From the NCBI GenBank assembly GCA_020318295.1, contig GCA_020318295.1_4859.2: a stretch of 25,872 nt of DNA; one strand, written 5' to 3'. Positions within the stretch are counted from its first letter, which is position 1. Each line of letters starts with the position of its first letter. The DNA is from a phage. The notes under the pieces are model-generated. The model was given only the letters and a program-made list of their open reading frames with translations, made no database searches and had not been told where the DNA came from. Position numbers and translations under genes: made by a program. This document shows, one piece after another, positions 879 to 23,157 of the stretch.

Positions 879-918
879 TAAAATAAAGCGTACCAGCCAC
901 CCCGAAGGATAGCTGGTA
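879..918 (-). terminator. Intrinsic terminator (hairpin plus U-run)
   Basis: Stem taccagc/gctggta around a loop containing CCTTCGG on the minus strand, followed by a T-rich run; downstream of the 1005-aa gene. Confidence 0.55.
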
Positions 919-923
919 TACAC

Positions 924-3900
924 TTAGTTAGTTTCGAGTGGATCGTCTGGAATAGTAAACGTTATATCAAGTGAAGCTGTTGTGTGGTCGGGGATTGCCA
1001 AGTCGTGATAGATATCATGCCCTGCACCATGTTCTTTATAGAGGAGATACAAGCCGATTGCACGCATCGCTTCCCCGGTATAAAACCCAAAGGCTTGACC
1101 GTTATCCGTAGTAGGGTTTGCCCACGGAGACCAGGCACCGTTAATGGCTTTTCCTGGAATGTCTGTGACGGTGAAGTTGTCACCCATCTCTTTCATCCCC
1201 ATATCCATAATACGGCTCAACCCTTCCACTGTACAGCCAGCCATTGCTGCATAAGCGCTGCCTGCTATCCAGAGCGCACACATATGTGCTGTGAAATCGT
1301 TCTCTACCCACACCGGTTTATTTGGTGCCGTAGGGAATTCATTCGGCGTGTGGTTGTCAAAGCGGTCTAAGAACCCTACGAGCCACTTAGCCCAATTTTC
1401 AACGTACACTACTAGCTCAGGTGGAACCTCTTTACCACGCACAACTAATTCGTACCAACAACGCGCAGCGGCGTTATACGCGCGCGGCTGATAACCTGCC
1501 CACGGATGTCCATCGCCCCAATGGAACGTTGTCCACGTATCTGCCGGGCCGTAAGAGTAGTTATCCCAACGGTTCCAAATATACGCCGCACAACCTGGAC
1601 CTAACTCACCTATCTGCTTTTGGTAGTTGGTTTGTGAATCGTGCATAAACCGAATCTGATTTAAGAGCCAGTCTTTGTAGCGATCATCGGTGTGTATGGT
1701 GTACATAAACGGATACTGATAGCCAGGATACGGCATCCCGTGCCATGCACCTAGCTGATACGTTCCTTCCGAATAAATGTTCGAGAACGGTATCGTTCCT
1801 GGGCAATACGCGAGCAAGTCAAGACGGTAATCTTTTATCGTACAATCGCCCACTTTACCCGTAAATGCAGAACCTCCCCGAATTACAATACGGAACGTTA
1901 ATGTCCAGCCGTCGTCTGCATTAAACAGTGGCGGAACATCGTTTACGCAATACCAGCTAAAGTGCGCATTCTCCACAGCCGAATCGGGCAGTATGGTTAC
2001 CTGATCGATAGTTGTATAGTTTGGCGCAGCCGGTTTTGGTTCGACGTCGGTATCGTGGTCAGGTTGATAGCCCGAGAGTGTTGCGTCTTCAGGGCGAATA
2101 ATAACCTGTTTCCATTCCCCGTTAGTCGCGGGCAACATCCACCACCAACGCCACTTGTCGGTATCTTCGAAACGGAAGTTGAAATCAGCATCGGCACGAT
2201 AGACAATTGACTGTGGGGGTGCAACACCGGCATCGGTTAACCAGAAACCGATAATGAAACCCGCATCGTCGTTCGGGAATAACGCTTCTACGATTGTGCC
2301 TGAACGACCATCGTAAATGTTGTTCTCAAACTTCTCCTGCCATGTACACCCACCGTAGTCCGAACATGCTCGCGCATCGGCAATGATGTAATCTTCGCCG
2401 TTGGCCGGATTGGTCATTCTGGCCAGATGCCCTAAATCGATGTCATGCTGTTCTACTTCCATCGATGTTGATCCCGGAAGCGTACAGCCGTACCAGTTTA
2501 CTTCTTCAGTATCCGCTTTGACGGGGTTAATATCCACCATCACTTTACACGCAAGTGCATCACCGTTGTCGCAAACACCGCCATACGTCACACGTAACTT
2601 CGATTGACTGTTTATCCTGAAACGCACGGCTTGCTGTTCCATAAAGTTCTGCACAGCTTCCTCAGAACGGAACACAATATCACCATTTTCATCACGACTG
2701 TAAGCGACCTCAACGGTGCTGGGGTATTTATAGTCGTACGAGATACCATCTGTAAATGGTGTTTCGGCTAGCTTAGAACGTCGGAAAAACTTGTCCTTCG
2801 CATCGATATACGTGTATTCGTGCGCTGTATAGAACACAGAGTCTAGTGCGGCTTTATAGCGCGCTTCACCTGTGATACGCCAGAGCAGATAGCAGGCATC
2901 AATAAACCACACTTCCGCATCTGCCGCGTTACCCATCTGGTTAACAGACCCTTTTAACGGGGTATGAACCGGGCGGTTGTGCCACGGCTCATTGCGGTCA
3001 AACAAATACCCGCCGTGCTCTACAGGTACCTGGGAAGCGTAGTTAATCAAATATACACCGTTAATACTGGTGTCCTTTAATTGTACGGTTCCTTTCTGGG
3101 CATCAGGTAAACCGGATTCGATGACATCGCCGTCTTTAACCTTCTCACCCGTCCACACAACAAACCAGTCAGGTTCGTACCGCGGACCTTTCGAGGTAGA
3201 ACCGCCCCACATTGGTGTATATCCGGTTGGGTCGTTTAACATCCTGTTCCAGTCCACCCACGCTTTTACATCGTAAGGTTTCTCTGGATTGGTGATTAAG
3301 TAATCAGGGACTTTAGACCAGTCAATTAACCCGTTTTCCGATTCCTTAATTTTCTGTACGTCAGCATTAACCGCACCCCAGGTAGGATGGCCACGGTGCG
3401 CAGAAAAGAAATTGTTCAGATACTCACCAAAGAATGGTGCGCCTTGGGGTATCTGGCAACGCCCGTTCGTAAACGTTACCGGTACACACTTGTAACCACC
3501 GTGGGTTGGCTCGGTCGGATGCACTGGATAGTCTGCCAGCACCGGTTCTTTACCGTTAACTAGCCAGTTACAAATCCATCGTTGCGGTGAATCGGGAATG
3601 GCCTGACCTGCGTAATAGTAGGTAGCGTACGCTTCCCATGCATGAATCGCCGCATCTAACCACATCTGGTTTTTGGTAGCAATGTACATGTGACAGTAGC
3701 CAATAATCAGCAACGATTGACCTTCTGTGGTGGCGTCACCATTAGGTTGATACACTGCCATGGAGTCAGCAATGAAATGCCGGTTATTAGATAGCACCCC
3801 TTCTGGGTTAATCAGATAATGGTCATTGTGGGCGTCGTTAGTTAAGCCGGTGTTTCGACGAACAAAGTCCTGATGTCCGTAAGCCAGCGACATCGCGTAG

Positions 3901-3941
3901 TTCAGCGCATGTCGTTTAGCAGAGATTTTAAATTTGCGCAT
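924..3941 (-). CDS. Large Trp/Tyr/Gly-rich protein (1005 aa); putative tail fibre, tailspike or carbohydrate-active virion protein
   Basis: Uninterrupted 3 kb ORF, ATG at 3941 with AGGA upstream, 3-nt gap to the upstream gene. Function is inferred from composition and gene order only. Confidence 0.7.
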   Translation of the reverse strand: MRKFKISAKRHALNYAMSLAYGHQDFVRRNTGLTNDAHNDHYLINPEGVLSNNRHFIADSMAVYQPNGDATTEGQSLLIIGYCHMYIATKNQMWLDAAIHAWEAYATYYYAGQAIPDSPQRWICNWLVNGKEPVLADYPVHPTEPTHGGYKCVPVTFTNGRCQIPQGAPFFGEYLNNFFSAHRGHPTWGAVNADVQKIKESENGLIDWSKVPDYLITNPEKPYDVKAWVDWNRMLNDPTGYTPMWGGSTSKGPRYEPDWFVVWTGEKVKDGDVIESGLPDAQKGTVQLKDTSINGVYLINYASQVPVEHGGYLFDRNEPWHNRPVHTPLKGSVNQMGNAADAEVWFIDACYLLWRITGEARYKAALDSVFYTAHEYTYIDAKDKFFRRSKLAETPFTDGISYDYKYPSTVEVAYSRDENGDIVFRSEEAVQNFMEQQAVRFRINSQSKLRVTYGGVCDNGDALACKVMVDINPVKADTEEVNWYGCTLPGSTSMEVEQHDIDLGHLARMTNPANGEDYIIADARACSDYGGCTWQEKFENNIYDGRSGTIVEALFPNDDAGFIIGFWLTDAGVAPPQSIVYRADADFNFRFEDTDKWRWWWMLPATNGEWKQVIIRPEDATLSGYQPDHDTDVEPKPAAPNYTTIDQVTILPDSAVENAHFSWYCVNDVPPLFNADDGWTLTFRIVIRGGSAFTGKVGDCTIKDYRLDLLAYCPGTIPFSNIYSEGTYQLGAWHGMPYPGYQYPFMYTIHTDDRYKDWLLNQIRFMHDSQTNYQKQIGELGPGCAAYIWNRWDNYSYGPADTWTTFHWGDGHPWAGYQPRAYNAAARCWYELVVRGKEVPPELVVYVENWAKWLVGFLDRFDNHTPNEFPTAPNKPVWVENDFTAHMCALWIAGSAYAAMAGCTVEGLSRIMDMGMKEMGDNFTVTDIPGKAINGAWSPWANPTTDNGQAFGFYTGEAMRAIGLYLLYKEHGAGHDIYHDLAIPDHTTASLDITFTIPDDPLETN

Positions 3942-3944
3942 GGC

Positions 3945-4418
3945 CTAGTATCCTGTTCCGCAAATGGCCCCTTTCCAGGTTGTACCGCCATCCGTAGATG
4001 ACAAAGACAACACATCCTCGGCGTCTAGCGTGTACGATAACGGAGGTTCTGCACCGTTAGGCCATTTAACCGAAGTCGGCCAGGTGATTTTGTTTGCACC
4101 GGTACCCTGACGTAGCGTCAGTAATAACTCATATCGCGTACCAGGAACCGGGTCGGTAATAGGCGTGATAGAAAGCGCAGTGGTGGGGTCACCTAAACGG
4201 ATGATGAAGTCGTCCGCAACATTGGGATCTATTTCAACGATACCGTCAGCACCGGATAAGTTTTGGATAGGGTTTGCATCTGCCCCACCACCGCCGATTT
4301 CACTGAGAGGAAGTTTGTACTCCTTTTCATCAACGCTGATAAGCGCTACTGCGCTCGACTTATCGCCGTTGTAAGAATCGAGTTCATGCAAACGTTTCTT
4401 TTTGACTACAGTTGCCAT
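3945..4418 (-). CDS. Hypothetical protein (157 aa), possibly tail-fibre associated
   Basis: Start overlaps the upstream stop as TAATG at 4416-4420; Gly-rich GGGGADANP segment. Structural role is an inference. Confidence 0.55.
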   Translation of the reverse strand: MATVVKKKRLHELDSYNGDKSSAVALISVDEKEYKLPLSEIGGGGADANPIQNLSGADGIVEIDPNVADDFIIRLGDPTTALSITPITDPVPGTRYELLLTLRQGTGANKITWPTSVKWPNGAEPPLSYTLDAEDVLSLSSTDGGTTWKGAICGTGY

Positions 4419-4951
4419 TATGCATCGTCTCCGTAGGTTAACACTGCATCATCACCGATGCATAAAACAGTTTCTTCATCCAGACTTGCCACAGCTTCTT
4501 TTTCATTAAACGCCGTGAATGTAAAGGTAGCCGTCCAAGCCGGCGAATCGTCACTCATCGGTGCAATCAACGGCTCGTTTGTTGGTGTAATAACCCCTGT
4601 CGAGATGTCTTCACGTGACAAGTTTAAACCGCACAACTGGTTTACAACTGTCGCTAAATCGGCATAGGTGTCGCCGGGAGCTACAGTAACCAGTATCGGT
4701 CCTTGCGGGTCGATAATCTTATTAGCAGCTAGACGGTCGTAATAGACGGTAATCTTCTTACCGTTAGGTTTACGTGCTTTCGCAATGAACGCTTGCGAGG
4801 TACGGGCACTTTCAACACCTAAGTCGATAGGCCCTACCCCGCTTATCACAATCTCGTCAGGCGATAATGACAAGCCGTTATCGTGATTAATCAACGCCAC
4901 GACAAGCGCTTTCGACGAGAGTGTTAGGTCGGGCTGATAGCGGTCTGCCAT
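4418..4951 (-). CDS. Hypothetical protein (177 aa using ATG at 4951)
   Basis: ORF 4418..4990 trimmed to MADRYQPDL..., which has GGAGG 6 nt upstream; the longer N-terminus would run into the terminator A-tract. Confidence 0.55.
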   Translation of the reverse strand: MADRYQPDLTLSSKALVVALINHDNGLSLSPDEIVISGVGPIDLGVESARTSQAFIAKARKPNGKKITVYYDRLAANKIIDPQGPILVTVAPGDTYADLATVVNQLCGLNLSREDISTGVITPTNEPLIAPMSDDSPAWTATFTFTAFNEKEAVASLDEETVLCIGDDAVLTYGDDA

Positions 4952-4965
4952 TAACGCCTCCAGAA

Positions 4966-5006
4966 ACAAAAAAAATAAGCTACCACACATATGATCGTGT
5001 GGTAGC
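4966..5006 (-). terminator. Intrinsic terminator
   Basis: Perfect 10-bp stem gctaccacac/gtgtggtagc (4979-4988 and 4997-5006) followed on the minus strand by a T8 run (plus-strand A-run 4966-4975). Confidence 0.7.
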
Positions 5007-5020
5007 CTACTCGTACGATG

Positions 5021-5427: not shown

Positions 5428-5811
5428 TTACGATAACTCGCCCATGTAAATTACTTCATAACCGAACCACTCACCGATTTCAATAAGGTAAGAAACTAGC
5501 AAGTGGCGATGACAGAATTTCCCCGGTGGGCAATAGCACATTAGTACGACCTCGCCCTGGCGGAGAATCTCTATCAACTTATCAGTGTCTTCATCAAACA
5601 ACTGACTAAGTTTCTGCAGGTAGCGTTTGGTATACGCAGCTTCTGCGTCGGGGCCTTTGTCAGACTTCTTGTAGTCCATCAGAAAGTCCCAGTCGGGTGC
5701 CAAATATTTCAGCCCCGACTTAACCGTTATATCCAGCTTTGGCAAATTCCGTTTTTCAGCTATCCGCCACTTCGCCAGTTGGAGCGTCCACAGCTTTACT
5801 TGCTTTGGCAT
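5428..5811 (-). CDS. DUF488-family protein (about 127 aa)
   Basis: C-terminal VVLMCYCPPGKFCHRHLLVSYL resembles the conserved Cys...CHR segment of DUF488 as I remember it. Start is ambiguous (ATG 5811 or 5862); either overlaps the upstream gene in another frame. Confidence 0.55.
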   Translation of the reverse strand: MPKQVKLWTLQLAKWRIAEKRNLPKLDITVKSGLKYLAPDWDFLMDYKKSDKGPDAEAAYTKRYLQKLSQLFDEDTDKLIEILRQGEVVLMCYCPPGKFCHRHLLVSYLIEIGEWFGYEVIYMGELS

Positions 5812-6763
5812 TTTTCGCTCTCTCTTTTTCTTTCTCCTGAAGCGCTTTAAAATGCGGTGCATATTCGCACCACTCTTCTGCTGTAAATGACGTGATAAAC
5901 AGTCTTTCGGTATCTTCAGTTACCGTAAAGGTTGTGTGATTTCTTTTCGGGTCCTTAAAGTTAGCAAAAGTCGGTACGTCCAAACCCATAGCAGAAATAG
6001 CACTACCGAGAGCAGAACACCATACCCGTCTGTAAGCATCGTTAATTTTAATCTCCCATCCCACAGACGGTGTAATACCAAGACTACGATAATTCTGCGA
6101 CTTTGCCGACGGATGGGCATAAACGATGAGCATGTTATTCTCACGGTCTATCGCGAATTCGTAGTTGTTGTAGTTACTGACCTGCACCAATCTACGAATG
6201 TCTTCCGGCAACTCCTGCCACATTTCCAGTTTCTCTTTATCCCACGCAGGTGTTAGAAGCGGTGGAACGCGGCCGGCATGATCTTGGAAATACATCAGTT
6301 CGCTATAAAGGTTCTTTAAGCGAGCGTACTCGTCTAATGTCCAATCTCCCAGCTCTAGACTATTCTCCAACGCATCTAACTTATTCCAGCCAACAACTGC
6401 ATAGGCGTGGTGCTGTTTGCGTGTAATGTCGCACATCAGTTTAGCGAGGCCGTTAACAACATTGCCTTGCTGAACCAGAGGCGACCAGCCGTTAGCGTAG
6501 CCGGCGCTAACGACAGGCGGAAAGTTCTCTTCCCCGAGCACCGCCCATGTAACACGATCGGTTTGTGCGTGGTATCTGTCCATTAACCGTTCAACAATGG
6601 CCACACTACAAAGAATTTCCATGAAGTTCGCGTTACCTCCATTCCACATGGAGAAATATGCAGGACGGACATGTCGTGCTTCATTGGCCGGTGCTTTGCA
6701 CAACAGCTGATACATTATCCAGGTGGAATCCAACCCTGCTGAAAACGAAACGAGCTTCGTCAT
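5756..6763 (-). CDS. PP-loop (SGGxDS-type) ATP pyrophosphatase-like protein (335 aa)
   Basis: N-terminal LVSFSAGLDST resembles the PP-loop of adenine-nucleotide alpha-hydrolases (QueC/MnmA/TilS class). ATG at 6763 with GAGG upstream. Substrate unknown. Confidence 0.6.
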   Translation of the reverse strand: MTKLVSFSAGLDSTWIMYQLLCKAPANEARHVRPAYFSMWNGGNANFMEILCSVAIVERLMDRYHAQTDRVTWAVLGEENFPPVVSAGYANGWSPLVQQGNVVNGLAKLMCDITRKQHHAYAVVGWNKLDALENSLELGDWTLDEYARLKNLYSELMYFQDHAGRVPPLLTPAWDKEKLEMWQELPEDIRRLVQVSNYNNYEFAIDRENNMLIVYAHPSAKSQNYRSLGITPSVGWEIKINDAYRRVWCSALGSAISAMGLDVPTFANFKDPKRNHTTFTVTEDTERLFITSFTAEEWCEYAPHFKALQEKEKERAKNAKASKAVDAPTGEVADS

Positions 6764-6771
6764 CCTTTACC

Positions 6772-7104
6772 TCACTTATGTTTCTGTTTTTCTTCACGCA
6801 TCAACTTAGCGTTCAGGTCGACCATGTAACCCGGTTTTTCCATCACCTGCACTTCTTCCCAGTTGCTTCCCACCGCCATTTTGAGGGTTCCTTGACGTAC
6901 CGCGATTTCTTTTGCAGTGTCACGGCAGACCTCTAACGCTTCGTCCAAATCGTTAAAGGTTGTCTTCTGTGGTCCGTTAAAGGTTTTAGCGCATTCCAGG
7001 AATACACGTTCGTAAACATCCTGGTCGAGTAAGAGTGGTTTGTCCGCAGCGTGGACAACCATAGGCGCAACGAGTGCGCCTAACAGAACTAAAACTTTCT
7101 TCAT
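6772..7104 (-). CDS. Small secreted or periplasmic protein (110 aa) with N-terminal signal peptide
   Basis: MKKVLVLLGALVAPMVVHA-ADKP is a typical signal peptide with an AxA cleavage site; start overlaps the upstream stop as TAATG. Confidence 0.6.
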   Translation of the reverse strand: MKKVLVLLGALVAPMVVHAADKPLLLDQDVYERVFLECAKTFNGPQKTTFNDLDEALEVCRDTAKEIAVRQGTLKMAVGSNWEEVQVMEKPGYMVDLNAKLMREEKQKHK

Positions 7105-7586
7105 TATTTCACCATGTGTATAAGTTGATAACGTGGGGTTTCTTCTACCACAACATCAAAGGATGGAATACATGATATCTTTCCATTCAGGTCGAGATGT
7201 ATACGTGGTGAAATCATAATGGTTCCCGCACGCATCAGTTCAACCGCCTGGGCTTTGAGTGGGCCATGCGGAGTAAAATCTCCGCGAAGTTGAAAATGTC
7301 CTTCAACGATTCCGTAGCAAATATTTGACACGTACCCACAAACGCGATCAAGGTCGATGTCACGCACACGACGGTTGGCGTCTTCTAATTCCTTAAAAGA
7401 CCGGCACGGCTTAATAACCGGCGCATCGTATTCACAAAAGACGTGACCGCGGCGTAACGCCAGTGAGACAGCTTCATCCGGATGGTGCGGATCTTTGAAG
7501 TCCTCACAGGGTATTGAGAAAATTAAACCGCTGGCCGTCGCAACTGTTTGAGCAGGTATTTCCTTAACCTCAGTTTGTAGTTTCAT
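7104..7586 (-). CDS. Hypothetical protein (160 aa)
   Basis: ORF directly downstream of the HslU-like gene after an 80-nt gap; no recognisable motif and no HslV-like N-terminal Thr signature. Confidence 0.55.
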   Translation of the reverse strand: MKLQTEVKEIPAQTVATASGLIFSIPCEDFKDPHHPDEAVSLALRRGHVFCEYDAPVIKPCRSFKELEDANRRVRDIDLDRVCGYVSNICYGIVEGHFQLRGDFTPHGPLKAQAVELMRAGTIMISPRIHLDLNGKISCIPSFDVVVEETPRYQLIHMVK

Positions 7587-7666
7587 AAACTCGCTCGATG
7601 ATTAATGGGGTTAAAATCAAATCCATGTAACCTAGGGTCAATAACGCACATGCGGCGCTATTAGCA

Positions 7667-9427
7667 TTACGCGTTCTCTGTCCAAGCGTGACCACGCAGC
7701 GTTTCACCGCGTATGTCGTATTGCTTATATTTCGAAGAGTCGTAAGACGCAGGTAAGAAGATCTGATGAACAATATCCGCCAGTCGACGAGCGCCAAGGT
7801 TCTCTACAGCATTGGCTTCCATTGTTTTCTCAGCGATGAACGTATAGGTGTCCATGTCGTACTGCGTTTCCACCCCTTCGGTTTTCAACAACTTAATCAT
7901 GCCGTGGAACTCACTGTTATCCAACTTACAGATAGCAATCAGTGCCTCGGTATCCAGCGAAGACATTTTCGCTCTTAACGGAAAACGTCCCTGGAGTTCT
8001 GCCATGAGTTTAGAAACAGGCGCTTGAGCAAACGACCCAGCAGCGACAAAAAGCACATTGGTTGTGTCAACGCCATGATAAATACCCCCTTCAACCATTT
8101 TCAACAAGCTACGCTGCACACCACTACGGGATACACGTGCAGTGTGTTGCGTGTCAACCTCGATAAGTTTGTCAAACTCATCCAAGAACACCACCGCAAA
8201 GTTCTCAACGAAATCATGTCCATTACAGTTGGGTAGTTTCTTGAGGTCTTTGCGGCTGACTGTTTCTTTTTCTGGCACAACTGTTTCAGGTATCTCGTAA
8301 TGCCAAAGCCGTTCATCGGCGTATTTGGTAAATTCTGGAGAACCTTCGAACACGTCATCCCACCAACGACACCACTTCTCAGGATCTTCCAAACGAGACA
8401 ACATGCGAATAGTAAACGCTGCAGCGTCGATCGGGAGCCAATTAATGCCCGCCGGCTCGACGTCCTCGTCGTCGCCGTTAAACGTGTCGAACAAATCGTA
8501 GAAATCTGAGCCATCGGCACACGAGAGTGGCAGGTTATTTGACATCAGCGCTTGACCGGCATCAACGTATAAGTCAATCTGTTCGCCTAAAGCCATCAGC
8601 GACATAAACTCACCCATATACCCAATCGTGCCCGGTATATCACCATCCATTAACTTATCGACTTGACTTTCAAGTTCTTCACTATTCAACAGTTCAGAAA
8701 TTGACGAGACACCGAGCAGACTCCTTGCGATTTCCGAAATCTTATCTATCCATTCCTGCACAGTACGGCCACCGAGCGTAACAGAATAGATATCGAAGTC
8801 TTCGTAGGTTAAATTGTGTTGACGGCAATAGCCAACCATAAACGCGCGAAGACAATAGATGTCTTGGTATTCTTCGTACAACTCCTTCGGATCGAGTATA
8901 CCCTGACGCCGTAATAGTTCGGTGTGGTCACGTTTAGCCTGATACCGCAGCTGGCGCTCAGCTGCGCGCTCGTCTAGTTCGCGCTCAACTTCCTTACGGG
9001 ATTCACGCTCCCACTCTTCACGAGTAAGACGATTACCGTCTACTTCCGTCTCGACACGTCGTTTGGTACGCAGTTCGATATACCAGTCGGGCAATTCGAC
9101 AGAACGCGCTAAGTCGGCTAAGTCCTTGCCGATTGATGTAACTTCCCGGCCTACGTAGCCTGATTCTGTAAACGCGGTCATGTCGAGTTCCAGCACAGGT
9201 AAACCGAATTTAGTTTTCAGTACCCGCATCAACGCCGTTTTACCCGTGCCTGTTGGACCTTCTATTAAAAGGTTCTGTTTGTGGACCGACATACGGTCCA
9301 CTACGTTAAGTTTATTGGCACGGTATCGATTACGTAGCGCAATCGCCAGCATTTTCTTTGCCTGCGTTTGTCCATATACGTAACGATCGAATAGCGCCAC
9401 TATCTCAACCGGCGTGAGGTTTTCCAT
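7667..9427 (-). CDS. HslU-like AAA+ ATPase (ClpY-type unfoldase) with a greatly expanded insertion domain (586 aa)
   Basis: N-terminus TPVEIVALFDRYVYGQTQAKKMLAIALRNRYR and Walker A GPTGTGKT, TESGYVGREV, Walker B VVFLDEFDK, SRSGVQRSLLKMVEGG and sensor-2 ENLGARRL all follow the HslU pattern from memory. About 340 aa separate Walker A and B. Confidence 0.85.
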   Translation of the reverse strand: MENLTPVEIVALFDRYVYGQTQAKKMLAIALRNRYRANKLNVVDRMSVHKQNLLIEGPTGTGKTALMRVLKTKFGLPVLELDMTAFTESGYVGREVTSIGKDLADLARSVELPDWYIELRTKRRVETEVDGNRLTREEWERESRKEVERELDERAAERQLRYQAKRDHTELLRRQGILDPKELYEEYQDIYCLRAFMVGYCRQHNLTYEDFDIYSVTLGGRTVQEWIDKISEIARSLLGVSSISELLNSEELESQVDKLMDGDIPGTIGYMGEFMSLMALGEQIDLYVDAGQALMSNNLPLSCADGSDFYDLFDTFNGDDEDVEPAGINWLPIDAAAFTIRMLSRLEDPEKWCRWWDDVFEGSPEFTKYADERLWHYEIPETVVPEKETVSRKDLKKLPNCNGHDFVENFAVVFLDEFDKLIEVDTQHTARVSRSGVQRSLLKMVEGGIYHGVDTTNVLFVAAGSFAQAPVSKLMAELQGRFPLRAKMSSLDTEALIAICKLDNSEFHGMIKLLKTEGVETQYDMDTYTFIAEKTMEANAVENLGARRLADIVHQIFLPASYDSSKYKQYDIRGETLRGHAWTENA

Positions 9428-14850: not shown

Positions 14851-15669
14851 TTATAAGGTGCCGATTAGCTCCGTCACCGCTTTACGCTTATTCGCATCCG
14901 CAGACATATATCGACCTACTTGAACTTCGCGCCAAGTAAAGCCGTAATAAATATCGCGTGTGAGTAACGTATCTGCGTTTGACAGAACGACCTTATTGCC
15001 ATCGGCAGCTTGTTGTTTTAAAAGTTTCGCTAACTCGCGGTGGTCAGCTTGTGAAAATTCTTTGCTGTGATACTGCGCGTGTTTAGCCGTATCCGAAAGT
15101 GGGATGTAGGGCGGGTCGGCGTATATCACAGCGTTAGATGGGCACTTATTTAGGATGTCGCGGAAGTCCGCGCAGAGCAGCTCGACGTTGGTTTCCGAAC
15201 AACGTTTTGCCCACGCCAGAATTTCCTCTTCAGGGAAATAGACACCGTTCGGGTGTTGACCATAGGGCACGTTAAACCCACCCGACTGATTGTATCTGCA
15301 CAAACCATTGTAACCATGACGTGTAAGATACAGGAACATCGCGGCGCGCTGGAGATTAGGTTTCCCCGTGGTTGCTTCGCTGTTAAATCCCTCGCGTCGT
15401 TCCATGTAGAGACCGCGGTCCGTCCCATTTGCAAAGAGCGCCTTTGCTTCCAGAATCAGCGCTTCCGGACGATCGCGCGCCATGGTCAGTAACTCGATTA
15501 AGTCCGGGTTCGTGTCGCCGAGAATATAGTTCGGGTATTTAGTGTTTAAAAACACTGACCCTGCGCCCACAAAAGGTTCAACGAAATACTCAGCATCCGG
15601 AAACACCTGTAGCAGCTCGGGCAGTACACGACTCTTACCACCCATCCATTTTAAAATTGGTTTTATCAC
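14851..15669 (-). CDS. dam: DNA adenine methyltransferase (Dam-like, N6-adenine, GATC-type family)
   Basis: LKWMGGKSRVLPEL, FVEPFVGAGSVFLN (AdoMet-binding) and catalytic YADPPYIPLS (DPPY) match E. coli Dam from memory. Start is GTG at 15669, supported by the conserved LKW-GGK N-terminus. Confidence 0.9.
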   Translation of the reverse strand: MIKPILKWMGGKSRVLPELLQVFPDAEYFVEPFVGAGSVFLNTKYPNYILGDTNPDLIELLTMARDRPEALILEAKALFANGTDRGLYMERREGFNSEATTGKPNLQRAAMFLYLTRHGYNGLCRYNQSGGFNVPYGQHPNGVYFPEEEILAWAKRCSETNVELLCADFRDILNKCPSNAVIYADPPYIPLSDTAKHAQYHSKEFSQADHRELAKLLKQQAADGNKVVLSNADTLLTRDIYYGFTWREVQVGRYMSADANKRKAVTELIGTL

Positions 15670-15672
15670 CCG

Positions 15673-16674
15673 TTAACATCCTCTCATGCCAGATTGAAAC
15701 ATATCACTGATAGTCAGCCTGGTTGTAGTCTCCACCGGAATGCTAGGTTCTTCTTTCAGCACTCGATCGGCGCGGTTCCCATTCACCCGTTTCCAGCTAA
15801 TAAGTTCAGGATCGCGTTTCAACGTTAGTGTACGCAGTACCTGCTTGCAACGTAAGATGTTGCCGTACAGGTGATTTGCTGGATTATTATCAGCAGCTGT
15901 TTCAATATAGACTTGGTCGGAATGACGTTGTGCGAAATCGAATAGCGCGCCCATTAGCCGGCGGCCAATGCCACGTTTACGGTGTGTGGGTGCAACGGTT
16001 AAACCAGAAAGTTCAACGACGCCTGGTGTAACCAAGCGCATCTGGGCAATACCGACGATATCATGGCCGTCTCGCCAAATTGCAGTCTCCACATTAGCGT
16101 GCTGAATTCTTGCTATTACTGTTTCTGCTAACGGACCAATGTGTGTATAGTAGCCACGCATATCGTATTCTAGCTCTTCGCAAATTGCACCGCTAATCAA
16201 ATTCAGGATAACGTCTTTATCTTCCTTGGTAAGTTCTGCGTATGCATCACCAGAAATAATCTTGATTTCTGATGCGGTGATTACTTTGTCAAACAGTTTA
16301 GAATGACATGCCCAAACGATATCTGAAAGAACAAACCCTTTTTCGACCAGTTTTTGTTCAACATCGTCAGTAGGTGCTGGGCACGACATATATTCGAATC
16401 CGGTATGGTCGAGCACAAGGGCCAAACCAACTTTATCGAATGCCCCAGGTACAAACTCCTCAAAATAGTGACAGGTTAGTGTAGGGTCACCGTGTCGATA
16501 GGTGGCCACTAAATAACCCTCCCAGGTTTCTTTATTCTTCACCACGTAAACAGAATAAGTCTCGTCCTTTAGAAACTCTTTTAGGCGGCGTGCTCGTACA
16601 GTATCGCTGCCGACGTTATTTCGGAACTCGGCAGTGCGGATGCTGGTGCGAAACAATTTAGCCACAGTTTTCAT
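15673..16674 (-). CDS. Two-domain protein with C-terminal GNAT acetyltransferase domain (334 aa)
   Basis: Canonical acetyl-CoA motif LTVAPTHRKRGIGRRLMGALFDFAQ in the C-terminal half. The track ORF starts with TTG at 16797 and overlaps the upstream gene and terminator; ATG at 16674 (MKTVAKLF...) was chosen. Confidence 0.7.
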   Translation of the reverse strand: MKTVAKLFRTSIRTAEFRNNVGSDTVRARRLKEFLKDETYSVYVVKNKETWEGYLVATYRHGDPTLTCHYFEEFVPGAFDKVGLALVLDHTGFEYMSCPAPTDDVEQKLVEKGFVLSDIVWACHSKLFDKVITASEIKIISGDAYAELTKEDKDVILNLISGAICEELEYDMRGYYTHIGPLAETVIARIQHANVETAIWRDGHDIVGIAQMRLVTPGVVELSGLTVAPTHRKRGIGRRLMGALFDFAQRHSDQVYIETAADNNPANHLYGNILRCKQVLRTLTLKRDPELISWKRVNGNRADRVLKEEPSIPVETTTRLTISDMFQSGMRGC

Positions 16675-16730
16675 TGTAATGCCCTCAAAAGGTATTGCTG
16701 TCACAACATGAGGATAATGCGTAAAAAGAC

Positions 16731-16758
16731 AAAAAATTAAGGGGTCCGAAGACCCCTT
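16731..16758 (-). terminator. Intrinsic terminator
   Basis: Perfect stem aaggggtc/gacccctt with a 4-nt loop (TTCG on the minus strand), followed by TTTTTT. Confidence 0.75.
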
Positions 16759-16763
16759 AATGA

Positions 16764-17420
16764 TTACAGTTCCGGTTTGGAGACAAGCGTCGTCCAAGTT
16801 TCGGAATGTTTGACACTAACGTGTGCTAGGCGATTCACCATGAAGGCAAATTTGTCCATATGTTTCTGCACTTCGTTATCAGTCAGATTGCCAGCGATAA
16901 CTTTACCGTCTTTGGTCAGCACGATATAGCCGTGGTTGTTGTCTACCGTAGTGAACGCCACATCAATCGTAACCGGGTAAAGTTTCACCAGCGTCGGCAG
17001 AATGTGGCCAACACGATCGGCCATACCCGCAAGCTGGCCACAAAGGTCGGCTTTATCCTGCATGAACAAACGCAACATCGCTACTGCAAACACCGGATAG
17101 ATGTTTTCGATTTGCGTGTCGTAACGAGACAGGCCGATAACTTCATCACCGCGGGTTAGCACCATGTTGTTCAGATGCGCGCCTTTATAGATGGTAAAGC
17201 GTACGTCGCTACCAAGGTTAACCGAAACGATTTCCTGACCAAGGTCAATCGGAAATTCACGTTCGATGTGAATCGTTTTCAGACGCTCACTGATCGGTAC
17301 AATCACATCCGGCTTCGGAATGCTAGATGTACGCGTGGATTCAGTGGTACGCGTTTTTGTGGATTTAACCGCACTGCTTGCCATTGAATCTTTTGCTACA
17401 GTTTTAGGGGCCTTCGCCAT
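16764..17420 (-). CDS. Hypothetical protein (218 aa), basic Ser/Thr-rich N-terminus
   Basis: ATG at 17420 with AAGGAG 6 nt upstream. Confidence 0.6.
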   Translation of the reverse strand: MAKAPKTVAKDSMASSAVKSTKTRTTESTRTSSIPKPDVIVPISERLKTIHIEREFPIDLGQEIVSVNLGSDVRFTIYKGAHLNNMVLTRGDEVIGLSRYDTQIENIYPVFAVAMLRLFMQDKADLCGQLAGMADRVGHILPTLVKLYPVTIDVAFTTVDNNHGYIVLTKDGKVIAGNLTDNEVQKHMDKFAFMVNRLAHVSVKHSETWTTLVSKPEL

Positions 17421-22027: not shown

Positions 22028-23157
22028 TTCACCTCAGCCAGCGATTGCTTCGTCCACTCCATTAGACCCTCTGCCACGCGTACCAACGCCGTGGTGAATG
22101 CGTCTTCCATCGCCATTGCATTACGGTAACGTAACGTGGCCTCCTTCAGCTCATCCCCTTCTAGGTTCTTAAGCTCGGACTTCATCGCTTCCACTTCTTC
22201 GTAAATGCCGGTGTAGCCCACAACACGGTTCTTTGTTCCACGTGCAGCAATAGATTTGATAAGTGCTTCCACAGCCTCTATTGCTTTCCCACACTGATGC
22301 ATATCCAGCGATTTAATGGTTTCACCATACTCACCGTCACGCGCAATTGCCCAACTGACCTTACCACTATGGTGCTCAACCACAACGATATTTCCAGGGA
22401 CAGGAAAAGCTTCCACCTTTTTAAAGGGATCGATGATGCCAAGCAACCCAGCAGCACGCCTAACTGCCCAGTTCGTGGACTTGCTGATTTGTTTTAAGCC
22501 TGGCCCTTCGAATGCTTTGCTTTTCTTCAGAGCGGTGCGTGTGTAAACCGTGTACTTTTGCACGACGCCTTCGTACGCATTTGTTTGTTTAGAAAACTTA
22601 ACACACGCTTCAAAATCGGGTCGATCTTCAAAGCAAACTTTAGACGTCCAGCTACTCGTGTGAACGTCGACCGCAGCGAGTGTTTTGTGGTCATCCAATA
22701 ACGACATTCGTGCTTTGAGCTTATTGAGCTTACGCTCCATGAATGCGGCTTTCGAAGTTATTTCTTTCAAACGGTCGGCTTGTTCTTTCGCTAGCGCTTC
22801 CGCGAAATCGTAAAAGCGTAATGCGAGCTTTTTCGAAAGTTTACCCGCGCCCTTTGCGGTTGCACCTAGTCCAGCACCCACTAACTTTCCAGCGCCTTTA
22901 ACAGCCTTCGCAGTAATGCGCCCTGCTGCGCGATGGATACCAGCTCGCGGGTCGGTATCAGTCATAAACTGAGCACGCTCCATCGCTTCACGCGATTCAC
23001 GAGCAACCAACATATCTTCACCGTCGTCGGTTAAGCACCAACGCTGACGAATCGCGCAAACCGCAGGGAAGTCGGGCTTAACTCCCAGACCTTCGAGTGC
23101 GACCAGGCGATCGTAGTCGTCAGTCAGGACTTCTAAATCTAAATCGAGCGTCGACAT
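22024..23157 (-). CDS. Hypothetical protein (377 aa) with Gly/Lys-rich repeat
   Basis: ATG at 23157 with AAGGAG 6 nt upstream; internal repeat KGAGKLVGAGLGATAKGAGKL. Confidence 0.6.
   Translation of the reverse strand: MSTLDLDLEVLTDDYDRLVALEGLGVKPDFPAVCAIRQRWCLTDDGEDMLVARESREAMERAQFMTDTDPRAGIHRAAGRITAKAVKGAGKLVGAGLGATAKGAGKLSKKLALRFYDFAEALAKEQADRLKEITSKAAFMERKLNKLKARMSLLDDHKTLAAVDVHTSSWTSKVCFEDRPDFEACVKFSKQTNAYEGVVQKYTVYTRTALKKSKAFEGPGLKQISKSTNWAVRRAAGLLGIIDPFKKVEAFPVPGNIVVVEHHSGKVSWAIARDGEYGETIKSLDMHQCGKAIEAVEALIKSIAARGTKNRVVGYTGIYEEVEAMKSELKNLEGDELKEATLRYRNAMAMEDAFTTALVRVAEGLMEWTKQSLAEVK

Follow-up and report, generated by a model that had tools for sequence, protein, structure and literature searches.

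The 25,872-nucleotide phage contig GCA_020318295.1_4859.2 (the whole stretch analysed here, referred to as the window) raises the question of what its largest gene, encoding a 1005-aa protein, does for the virus, and what part is played by the two small genes packed in front of it. An earlier note on this DNA had read the trio as a receptor-binding or depolymerase protein attached through a separate adaptor. The window belongs to a Seoulvirus, that is, to an SPN3US-like, nucleus-forming jumbo phage. We consider it probable that the three genes serve a tail appendage targeting host-surface glycans. The large protein is predicted to be glycosidase-like, its nearly identical orthologue is found in tailed virions, and the 157-aa protein has a docking domain that accompanies the large protein in very different phages while the virion-facing end is swapped.

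All long open reading frames (ORFs) of the window are encoded by the minus strand, and the locus has the following layout:

924..3941, minus strand: predicted tail-associated glycosidase-like protein of 1005 aa (113.8 kDa, isoelectric point 4.9), orthologue of SPN3US gp124 (SPN3US_0124)
3945..4418, minus strand: adaptor protein of 157 aa, orthologue of SPN3US gp123 (SPN3US_0123)
4418..4951, minus strand: protein of 177 aa with a DUF7941 N-terminal module and an acidic C-terminal tail, orthologue of SPN3US gp122 (SPN3US_0122)
4957..4961, minus strand: Shine-Dalgarno-like GGAGG, 5 nt before the ATG at 4951, as read from the sequence
4973..5012, minus strand: terminator-like hairpin upstream of the three genes, a 17-bp stem followed by a T-run
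891..918, minus strand: terminator-like hairpin with a 12-bp stem, 6 nt past the stop of the 1005-aa gene

The ORF at 924..3941, which begins with ATG, is the longest in the window, and the two small genes do precede it as had been described. The TAA of the 177-aa gene overlaps the ATG of the 157-aa gene at 4420..4416, which is the TAATG coupling reported before, and the TAG of the latter is followed after only 3 nt (GCC) by the ATG of the large gene. Taken mechanically, the ORF of the 177-aa protein extends to an upstream ATG at 4990, where there is no Shine-Dalgarno-like site. The two hairpins (5012..4973 and 918..891) flank the three-gene set on both sides. Upstream of it lie non-structural genes, whose products are a DUF488 protein, an AAA+ ATPase, a methylase of Dam type and a GNAT protein. 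The large protein is rich in aromatic residues: Trp accounts for 3.8% and Tyr for 6.0%, compared with 1.6% and 4.0% in 18 other minus-strand proteins of the window. Both peptides that the earlier note had quoted as examples can be located in it, at aa 81 and aa 792. Its description of the 157-aa protein as Gly-rich stands in part: Gly makes up 10.8% and there is a GGGG linker, but the enrichment is merely moderate. The large protein had been described as lacking an obvious fibre anchor, and since the Pfam scan finds no domain in it, it indeed has no recognizable one.

By both sequence and position the trio corresponds to SPN3US_0124, _0123 and _0122. The SPN3US orthologue is 97.4% identical over 100% of the 1005-aa protein (tblastn), and gene order, TAATG-type packing and flanking genes are all as in the window; the differences, 26 amino acids in the large protein and a window adaptor linker one Gly longer, concern nothing essential. 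Proteins 96–99% identical to the 1005-aa one occur in 23 records of the collection searched. The gene is already catalogued and annotated in dozens of genomes, under labels that vary from 'hypothetical' to 'tail-associated protein' and 'glycosyl hydrolase'. The large protein matches phrog_2871 ('tail protein'; E=0, 1502.7 bits, aa 1–993), the 157-aa protein phrog_9017 ('tail fiber protein') and the 177-aa protein phrog_2935. HMMER, run exhaustively against 1.84 billion cluster representatives, collected only 376 family members at E≤1e-3, many of them within longer proteins, and revealed no bridge to cellular glycoside hydrolase (GH) families. We found no functional study of the SPN3US gp124 family in the literature searched, which included work on six-hairpin phage depolymerases, and no solved structure or reported substrate for any member in the PDB and the literature searched. 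About 20 public records (MG0656xx) labelled as Campylobacter jejuni phages (C2, A147, D1 and others) carry a gene whose DNA matches that of the E. coli rV5-like homologue at ~98% identity; these genomes are rV5-like in size, and the records are probably mislabelled or contaminant Vequintaviruses.

Published proteomics places the large protein in the virion. In wild-type SPN3US purified on caesium chloride, gp124 (113.7 kDa) was represented by 39 unique peptides and 73 spectra at 48% coverage (PMC5694885, Supplementary Table 1). According to the same study, its spectral count per mass was 0.64, while that of the portal (12 copies) was 0.93; gp124 carried no head-protein flag, and gp123 (16.5 kDa) yielded five peptides (PMC5694885). 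Among mutant preparations, gp124 gave 79 spectra in am11 sup+, 72 in am11 sup− and 64 in am27 sup+, and none in am27 sup−, which is tailless; gp123 gave five spectra in am27 sup+ and none in am11 sup+, am11 sup− and am27 sup− (PMC5105663, Table S4). Since gp124 spectra come with tailed particles and are absent from tailless ones, the orthologue belongs to the tail-associated proteins of the virion and is of low copy number, the number itself being inferred from the spectra. Absence from virions was the first thing that the earlier note had named as speaking against its proposal; instead, mass spectrometry finds a 97%-identical orthologue in tailed SPN3US virions. The published SPN3US work gives gp124 no function.

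What kind of protein this is was addressed with an AlphaFold2 model based on an alignment of 56 homologues (mean predicted local distance difference test score 89.5, predicted template modelling score 0.85). The model corresponds to a six-hairpin (α/α)6 barrel, interrupted by β-structural modules, with carbohydrate-binding module (CBM)-like domains among them:

2745..3941, minus strand (aa 1–399): N-terminal helix, first two barrel helix pairs and β-rich insertion, with D69, E73, D341, E343, D383 and D398 (model and alignment)
1827..2744, minus strand (aa 400–705): two CBM-like β-sandwich domains between the barrel halves
927..1826, minus strand (aa 706–1005): C-terminal half of the (α/α)6 barrel and a tail of ~30 aa, with W789, R791, R820 and E957 (model, structural comparison and alignment)

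In the model, a long N-terminal helix (aa 2–29) is followed by helix pairs at aa 72–109 and 340–375, separated by a β-rich insertion of ~215 aa (~120–335), then by an all-β block (aa ~400–705) and by the C-terminal helices 756–777, 817–834, 841–860, 885–901, 908–921 and 952–971. The best structural match is the GH48 cellobiohydrolase 5bv9 (406 residues aligned, 12% identity, score 19.8), followed by GH105 (16.6–16.7), GH8 (16.3) and GH88 (15.7–16.0), with GH76, GH47, GH9 and AGE-type epimerases lower; several GH8 matches are BcsZ-type endoglucanases. The CBM-like part matches CBM11 (12.7), a laminarin-binding CBM (11.5) and CBM70 (11.0). Thus, the predicted barrel and CBM-like domains agree with the glycoside-hydrolase or carbohydrate-binding (alpha/alpha-toroid-like) character that had been suggested from composition. 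The likeness to GH48, GH8, GH105 and GH88 enzymes consists in the (α/α)6 barrel of a predicted structure; in contrast to that likeness, the large protein is only 8–12% identical to them with no match in Pfam or PDB sequences, and its barrel is interrupted by the ~215-aa β insertion and ~300 aa of CBM-like domains. A β-helix or fibrous trimer with an N-terminal anchor, as in a canonical tailspike or tail fibre, is not what the model displays.

An alignment of homologues at 28–62% identity, comprising rV5-like, Rosemountvirus, 7-11, PCH45, 121Q, phiR8-01 and metagenomic members, leaves D69, E73, D341, E343, D383, R387, D398, D593, W597, W599, W789, R791, R820 and E957 invariant. In (α/α)6 six-hairpin glycosidases, the barrel helices carry the catalytic residues at their N-terminal ends. 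In our model D69/E73 and D341/E343 are located at such ends and E957 is found close to where the last helix starts, which makes them candidate catalytic residues.

The virion-facing side of the system is represented by the 157-aa protein. Its first 49 residues, modelled with low confidence, comprise a basic MATVVKKKRL motif and the GGGG linker, and residues ~50–157 are modelled as a conserved β-sandwich docking domain that ends in an Asp-box-like SSTDGGTTW and resembles the attachment domains of fibres and spikes. The Gly run (aa 43–46; window 4281..4292) varies in length: the window and SPLA1a, with adaptors of 157 aa, have GGGG, and SPN3US and SPLA5c, with adaptors of 156 aa, have GGG; the adaptor of Proteus phage 7 likewise has 156 aa. 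Pfam recognizes no virion-anchor domain in the window adaptor. Nor is this protein a sialidase/BNR propeller with multiple Asp-boxes, as the single Asp-box-like motif scores 12.6 bits against a cut-off of 27 and the model is a small β-sandwich. The 'sialidase domain' label of the rV5-like adaptor likewise rests on a single Asp-box-like motif below the Pfam threshold.

The C-terminal domain of the adaptor is encoded directly upstream of a large-protein homologue at seven loci in phages of different types. This cassette is found within the neck module of Rosemountvirus UPF_BP2 and SPLA2, within the baseplate/fibre locus of Vequintavirus DrSchubert and MaxBurger, in podovirus 7-11, jumbo phage 121Q and the phage phiR8-01 described below, as the last of the tail genes following the tape measure in a Spongiibacter siphovirus-type prophage, and in a 180-kb jumbo-phage contig, where the large protein is 67% identical. 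Adaptor conservation is limited to the C-terminal ~100 aa (E 2e-24 to 1e-12 across homologues), and the N-termini differ between phages, matching the host virion. Thus, g043 of the Yersinia phage phiR8-01 (Autographiviridae) is 48% identical to the window adaptor in the C-terminal domain (E 5e-23) and carries a T7 tail-fibre N-domain (Pfam Phage_T7_tail, E 5.6e-9, above the curated cut-off), and the adaptor of the rV5-like DrSchubert carries Tail_spike_N (E 2e-10). The phiR8-01 cassette lies between a gp16-like transglycosylase and the holin and terminase genes, occupying the gp17 tail-fibre slot in which the relative Ahp1 has a single canonical T7-anchor fibre; it is effectively a split tail fibre, composed of an anchor-adaptor and a head. 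With the docking domain kept beside the large-protein homologue at all these loci and the anchors exchanged, sequence comparison favours the separate adaptor that had been postulated. The best-supported reading is one of horizontal spread of the cassette among phages of Gammaproteobacteria, across myo-, podo- and sipho-types. In Rosemountvirus (SPLA2, L016 11265..15372; UPF_BP2, L004 3800..7907), it is situated between a neck-terminator gene (Pfam Phage_tail_terminator_9) and the genes for an Ig-domain structural protein and the major tail protein. The genes for baseplate and fibres are far away, which suggests that in these phages the appendage is mounted on the neck or collar.

An adaptor combined with an enzymatic tail protein is a well-known general principle, and the arrangement recalls SP6/K1-5-type adaptors and G7C assemblies. 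Compared with two-component adaptor and tailspike systems (T7 gp17 anchors, branched CBA120 TSP, G7C gp66/gp63.1), the window head is predicted to be an (α/α)6 barrel with CBM-like inserts instead of a trimeric β-helix; no trimerization element is evident in it, and the window adaptor is without a recognizable anchor domain. A closer counterpart is the Vequintavirus 'lateral tail fiber protein with glycosidase domains' (bas50_0026/bas54_0026), a full-length homologue of the large protein (26% identity, E 2e-96). With bas50_0025 ('sialidase domain protein') it reproduces, within the baseplate/fibre locus, the adaptor-then-head order of the window; it differs in having 865 instead of 1005 aa, an adaptor with Tail_spike_N and many other fibres around. 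According to the BASEL paper, Vequintaviruses have a conserved fibre component with a poly-N-acetylglucosamine deacetylase domain homologous to N4 gp64; judged by its position, this component might have been the large-protein homologue. A link of our family to N4 gp64 was considered and dropped: BLASTP against bas50_0026 and the window protein gave nothing (E 0.5–0.8), so that fibre component is a different protein. What appears to be new is the fold assignment, the swappable-anchor adaptor architecture and a recurrent linkage to DUF7941; the former two are absent from the literature searched.

The 177-aa protein matches Pfam DUF7941 (PF25613) with E 8.7e-18 and 65.2 bits (cut-off 27) over profile positions 3–162 of 276, that is, over the N-module and linker only. 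According to a 2026 Goslar preprint, DUF7941 is limited to chimalliviruses, reaches thousands of copies in each virion, assembles head to tail into filaments in vitro and fits the PhiKZ peripheral baseplate density, and three Goslar proteins fuse it to CBM, GH or leucine-rich repeat domains. Other DUF7941 proteins compared were PhiKZ gp126/gp127 and SPN3US 'paralog family B'. Among the Goslar proteins, gp23 resembles the window 177-aa protein (DUF7941 N-terminal globular module and linker) in being without the C-terminal domain, and the DUF7941-CBM/GH fusions are functionally analogous to the gene trio, except that in the window DUF7941, adaptor and glycosidase-like head are three separate polypeptides. 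The 177-aa orthologue is also very scarce or absent in SPN3US virions, in contrast to hundreds to thousands of copies of Goslar gp22/gp23. PDB sequence searches with the adaptor and the 177-aa protein gave no meaningful match.

A DUF7941 gene precedes the large gene in three chimallivirus-type genomes (Seoulviruses, PCH45 and the 180-kb contig). In Seoulviruses and the contig the adaptor gene lies in between, and in both the adaptor N-terminus is a short basic peptide (MAxxxKKKRLxxL). The Serratia phage PCH45 homologue (L008 3203..7201) has 1332 aa with a 266-aa N-terminal extension and a 283-aa DUF7941 protein directly upstream; neither a separate adaptor gene nor an adaptor domain was detected at that locus. 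Reading the extension as a fused adaptor domain found no support (hhalign probability 1.3%), and DUF7941 was likewise undetected in it. The idea that gp122 and gp123 are a split full-length DUF7941 protein was also rejected, as the profile match does not carry over into gp123 and the adaptor is unlike the DUF7941 C-terminal half. All the DUF7941 partners, that of PCH45 included, end in an acidic tail, in which an hLC..D motif is common to the Seoulvirus and 180-kb-contig proteins and only loose in PCH45. These sequence features hint that the DUF7941 protein may supply or assist anchoring in these jumbo phages. In SPN3US, the DUF7941 paralogues gp138–154 begin ~5 kb downstream of the cassette. 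In SPLA1a (L014), at 22241..29778, ~5 kb downstream of the large gene and beyond the part covered by the window, there are at least eight 'virion structural protein' genes; all five that were scanned encode DUF7941 proteins, either full-length or N-terminal (E 1e-31 to 1e-85), corresponding to SPN3US 'paralog family B'. Published views of this family disagree, with gp138–143 found in SPN3US tailless heads and DUF7941 placed at the peripheral baseplate by the Goslar preprint.

As to the glycan and host range, where the evidence is indirect throughout, the Seoulviruses SPLA1a and SPLA5c require the O-antigen of lipopolysaccharide (LPS), as shown by TraDIS (transposon-directed insertion-site sequencing) and deletion mutants; deletion of rfaL confers complete resistance to SPLA1a, and glucosylation of the O-antigen by gtrB gives protection from SPLA5c, though none from SPLA1a (PMC10949491). 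The authors of that study point to a divergent ~10-kb block of 17 genes with 'a putative tail fiber protein' (PMC10949491). We find that this block (SPLA1a, L014 10001–21000; 93–97% identity compared with 98–100% in much of the flanks) includes the three-gene cassette and that its annotated tail fiber protein is the gp123 orthologue. The large proteins of SPLA1a and SPLA5c differ at 23 scattered positions, none of them invariant. The gtrB gene also protects against Rosemountvirus SPLA11, which has the cassette, and its sibling SPLA2 depends on cellulose-synthesis genes. Between SPLA2 and SPLA11 (L016 12415..15372 and L018 4474..7431) the large proteins differ in 31 residues, and 11 of these form a cluster at aa 200–249. 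This cluster falls in the β insertion of the barrel and includes W221A; W620S and Y591C lie in the CBM-like region. Assigning the cellulose-versus-LPS difference to the cassette was considered as well, but it cannot be so assigned because another tail protein is far more divergent (83%).

We therefore propose the following explanation, which we regard as probable as a whole. The three genes would form one transcription unit for an accessory, glycan-targeting tail appendage of the jumbo phage. The large protein would be its globular head, neither fibre nor β-helix spike, with a GH-like barrel cleft lined by the invariant Asp/Glu, Arg and Trp residues and with two inserted CBM-like β-sandwiches. 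It would bind a bacterial surface polysaccharide and probably cleave it; in Salmonella Seoulviruses the target would most likely be the LPS O-antigen, the leading candidate for the substrate. The adaptor would hold the head through its C-terminal β-sandwich and fix the pair to the virion through its N-terminus, which would be exchanged to suit the virion as the cassette moves between unrelated phages. In nucleus-forming jumbo phages, this N-terminus appears to have shrunk to a basic peptide, and the DUF7941 N-module protein encoded just upstream would probably supply or assist attachment to the peripheral baseplate or the DUF7941 network.

Several observations weigh against this explanation. 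Pfam shows no family for the large protein at E≤1, PDB sequences give no match in single-sequence or profile searches, and neither Pfam nor PDB sequence profiles link it to any CAZy family. The candidate catalytic residues are placed by conservation and helix position rather than by superposition on a known active site. Among Seoulviruses the large protein is 97–99% conserved with scattered substitutions, unlike a hypervariable receptor-binding tip, SPN3US is reported to use flagella as receptor, and the Vequintavirus homologue bas54_0026 withstands transposon insertion on E. coli K-12, although certain fibre genes of the phage concerned, Bas54, become conditionally essential on clinical isolates. 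The weakest link is anchoring by DUF7941, because gp122 is barely detectable in virions: it went undetected in the wild type, and a second SPN3US study (Supplementary Table 3) found just three peptides in one of three preparations. Moreover, the SPN3US DUF7941 paralogues stay with tailless heads (PMC5105663), which conflicts with a baseplate location and speaks against a simple baseplate-anchor role.

Could the large protein do without catalysis? It might be a lectin-like receptor-binding protein, whose barrel and CBM-like domains bind glycan and whose conserved acidic residues serve binding or folding. We hold this to be unlikely, and catalysis to be plausible. It is similarly doubtful that the protein is a depolymerase of biofilm matrix or exopolysaccharide (cellulose or another conserved glycan) that aids access to the cell rather than strain choice. 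The top match to a GH48 cellulase, together with the BcsZ-type endoglucanases, would fit such a role, as would the need of SPLA2, whose homologue is 47% identical, for host cellulose-synthesis genes, the conservation rather than variability of the large protein within genera, and the dispensability of a homologue on K-12. Yet SPLA11, with a 96.9%-identical copy, depends on LPS and not on cellulose, structural similarity at 12% identity is uninformative about substrate, and in phiR8-01 the cassette in the gp17 slot is the sole candidate fibre, which implies that its role in that phage is one of primary receptor binding.

A purely structural tail or baseplate part, with a glycosidase-derived fold, no host recognition and small neighbours that merely reflect operon packing, seems very improbable to us. 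High conservation within Seoulviruses, the lack of an assigned function in the SPN3US work and the resemblance of S144 ORF17 to neither fibre nor spike by Phyre2 are in line with it. However, a core structural part would not be expected to move, as the cassette does, between virions of myo-, podo- and sipho-type and to carry different anchors in them; furthermore, the homologue is dispensable for virion formation in Bas54, and in podoviruses the cassette occupies the fibre slot. Returning to the glycan-targeting appendage, a bolder version of it can be formulated, although we would not expect it to hold in full. The large protein would represent a new phage-specific GH family on a universal docking domain with swappable anchors (T7-type, tailspike N-domain, neck-module and sipho-tail); in jumbo phages anchoring would have passed to the DUF7941 protein, whose acidic C-terminal peptide would capture the adaptor KKKRL and tether the enzyme to the DUF7941 filament/baseplate network.

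The surroundings of the cassette show features of their own. The gene for a 586-aa AAA+ ATPase (window 7648..9389; ORF 7667..9427, minus strand), in which a long insert divides the Pfam AAA half from the AAA_2 half, is without an equivalent at the corresponding position in SPN3US, SPLA1a and SPLA5c, and 6806..9224 of the window is additionally missing from SPLA1a, making this region an indel hot spot ~3.7 kb upstream of the cassette. The DUF488-family ORF at 5428..5862 (minus strand; 144 aa from the first ATG) overlaps the 3′ end of a 335-aa ORF (5756..6763) by 107 nt; because the corresponding overlap annotated in SPN3US is 56 nt, its true start is probably further downstream. A D12-class N6-adenine DNA methyltransferase gene (14851..15669, minus strand; E 1.3e-53) is tightly packed immediately downstream of a 374-aa gene (15673..16797, minus strand), whose product has a C-terminal GNAT acetyltransferase domain.

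Should the large protein prove to be an active glycosidase, it would represent a class of virion-borne depolymerases that is not based on the β-helix, in a family present in phages used for biocontrol of Salmonella, E. coli and Erwinia (Seoulvirus, Rosemountvirus and Vequintavirinae). The docking domain with its exchangeable anchors suggests a natural portable interface for shifting receptor-binding heads between very different virions, an interface that could serve host-range engineering. Like the earlier note, we infer a host-range role for the head. For Seoulviruses, the cassette provides a concrete, low-copy and genetically tractable candidate behind their O-antigen dependence, as well as a test case for the link between DUF7941 and host-recognition domains. 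Were the capture of the adaptor KKKRL by the DUF7941 protein true, it would be the first defined cargo-attachment mechanism for the DUF7941 network.

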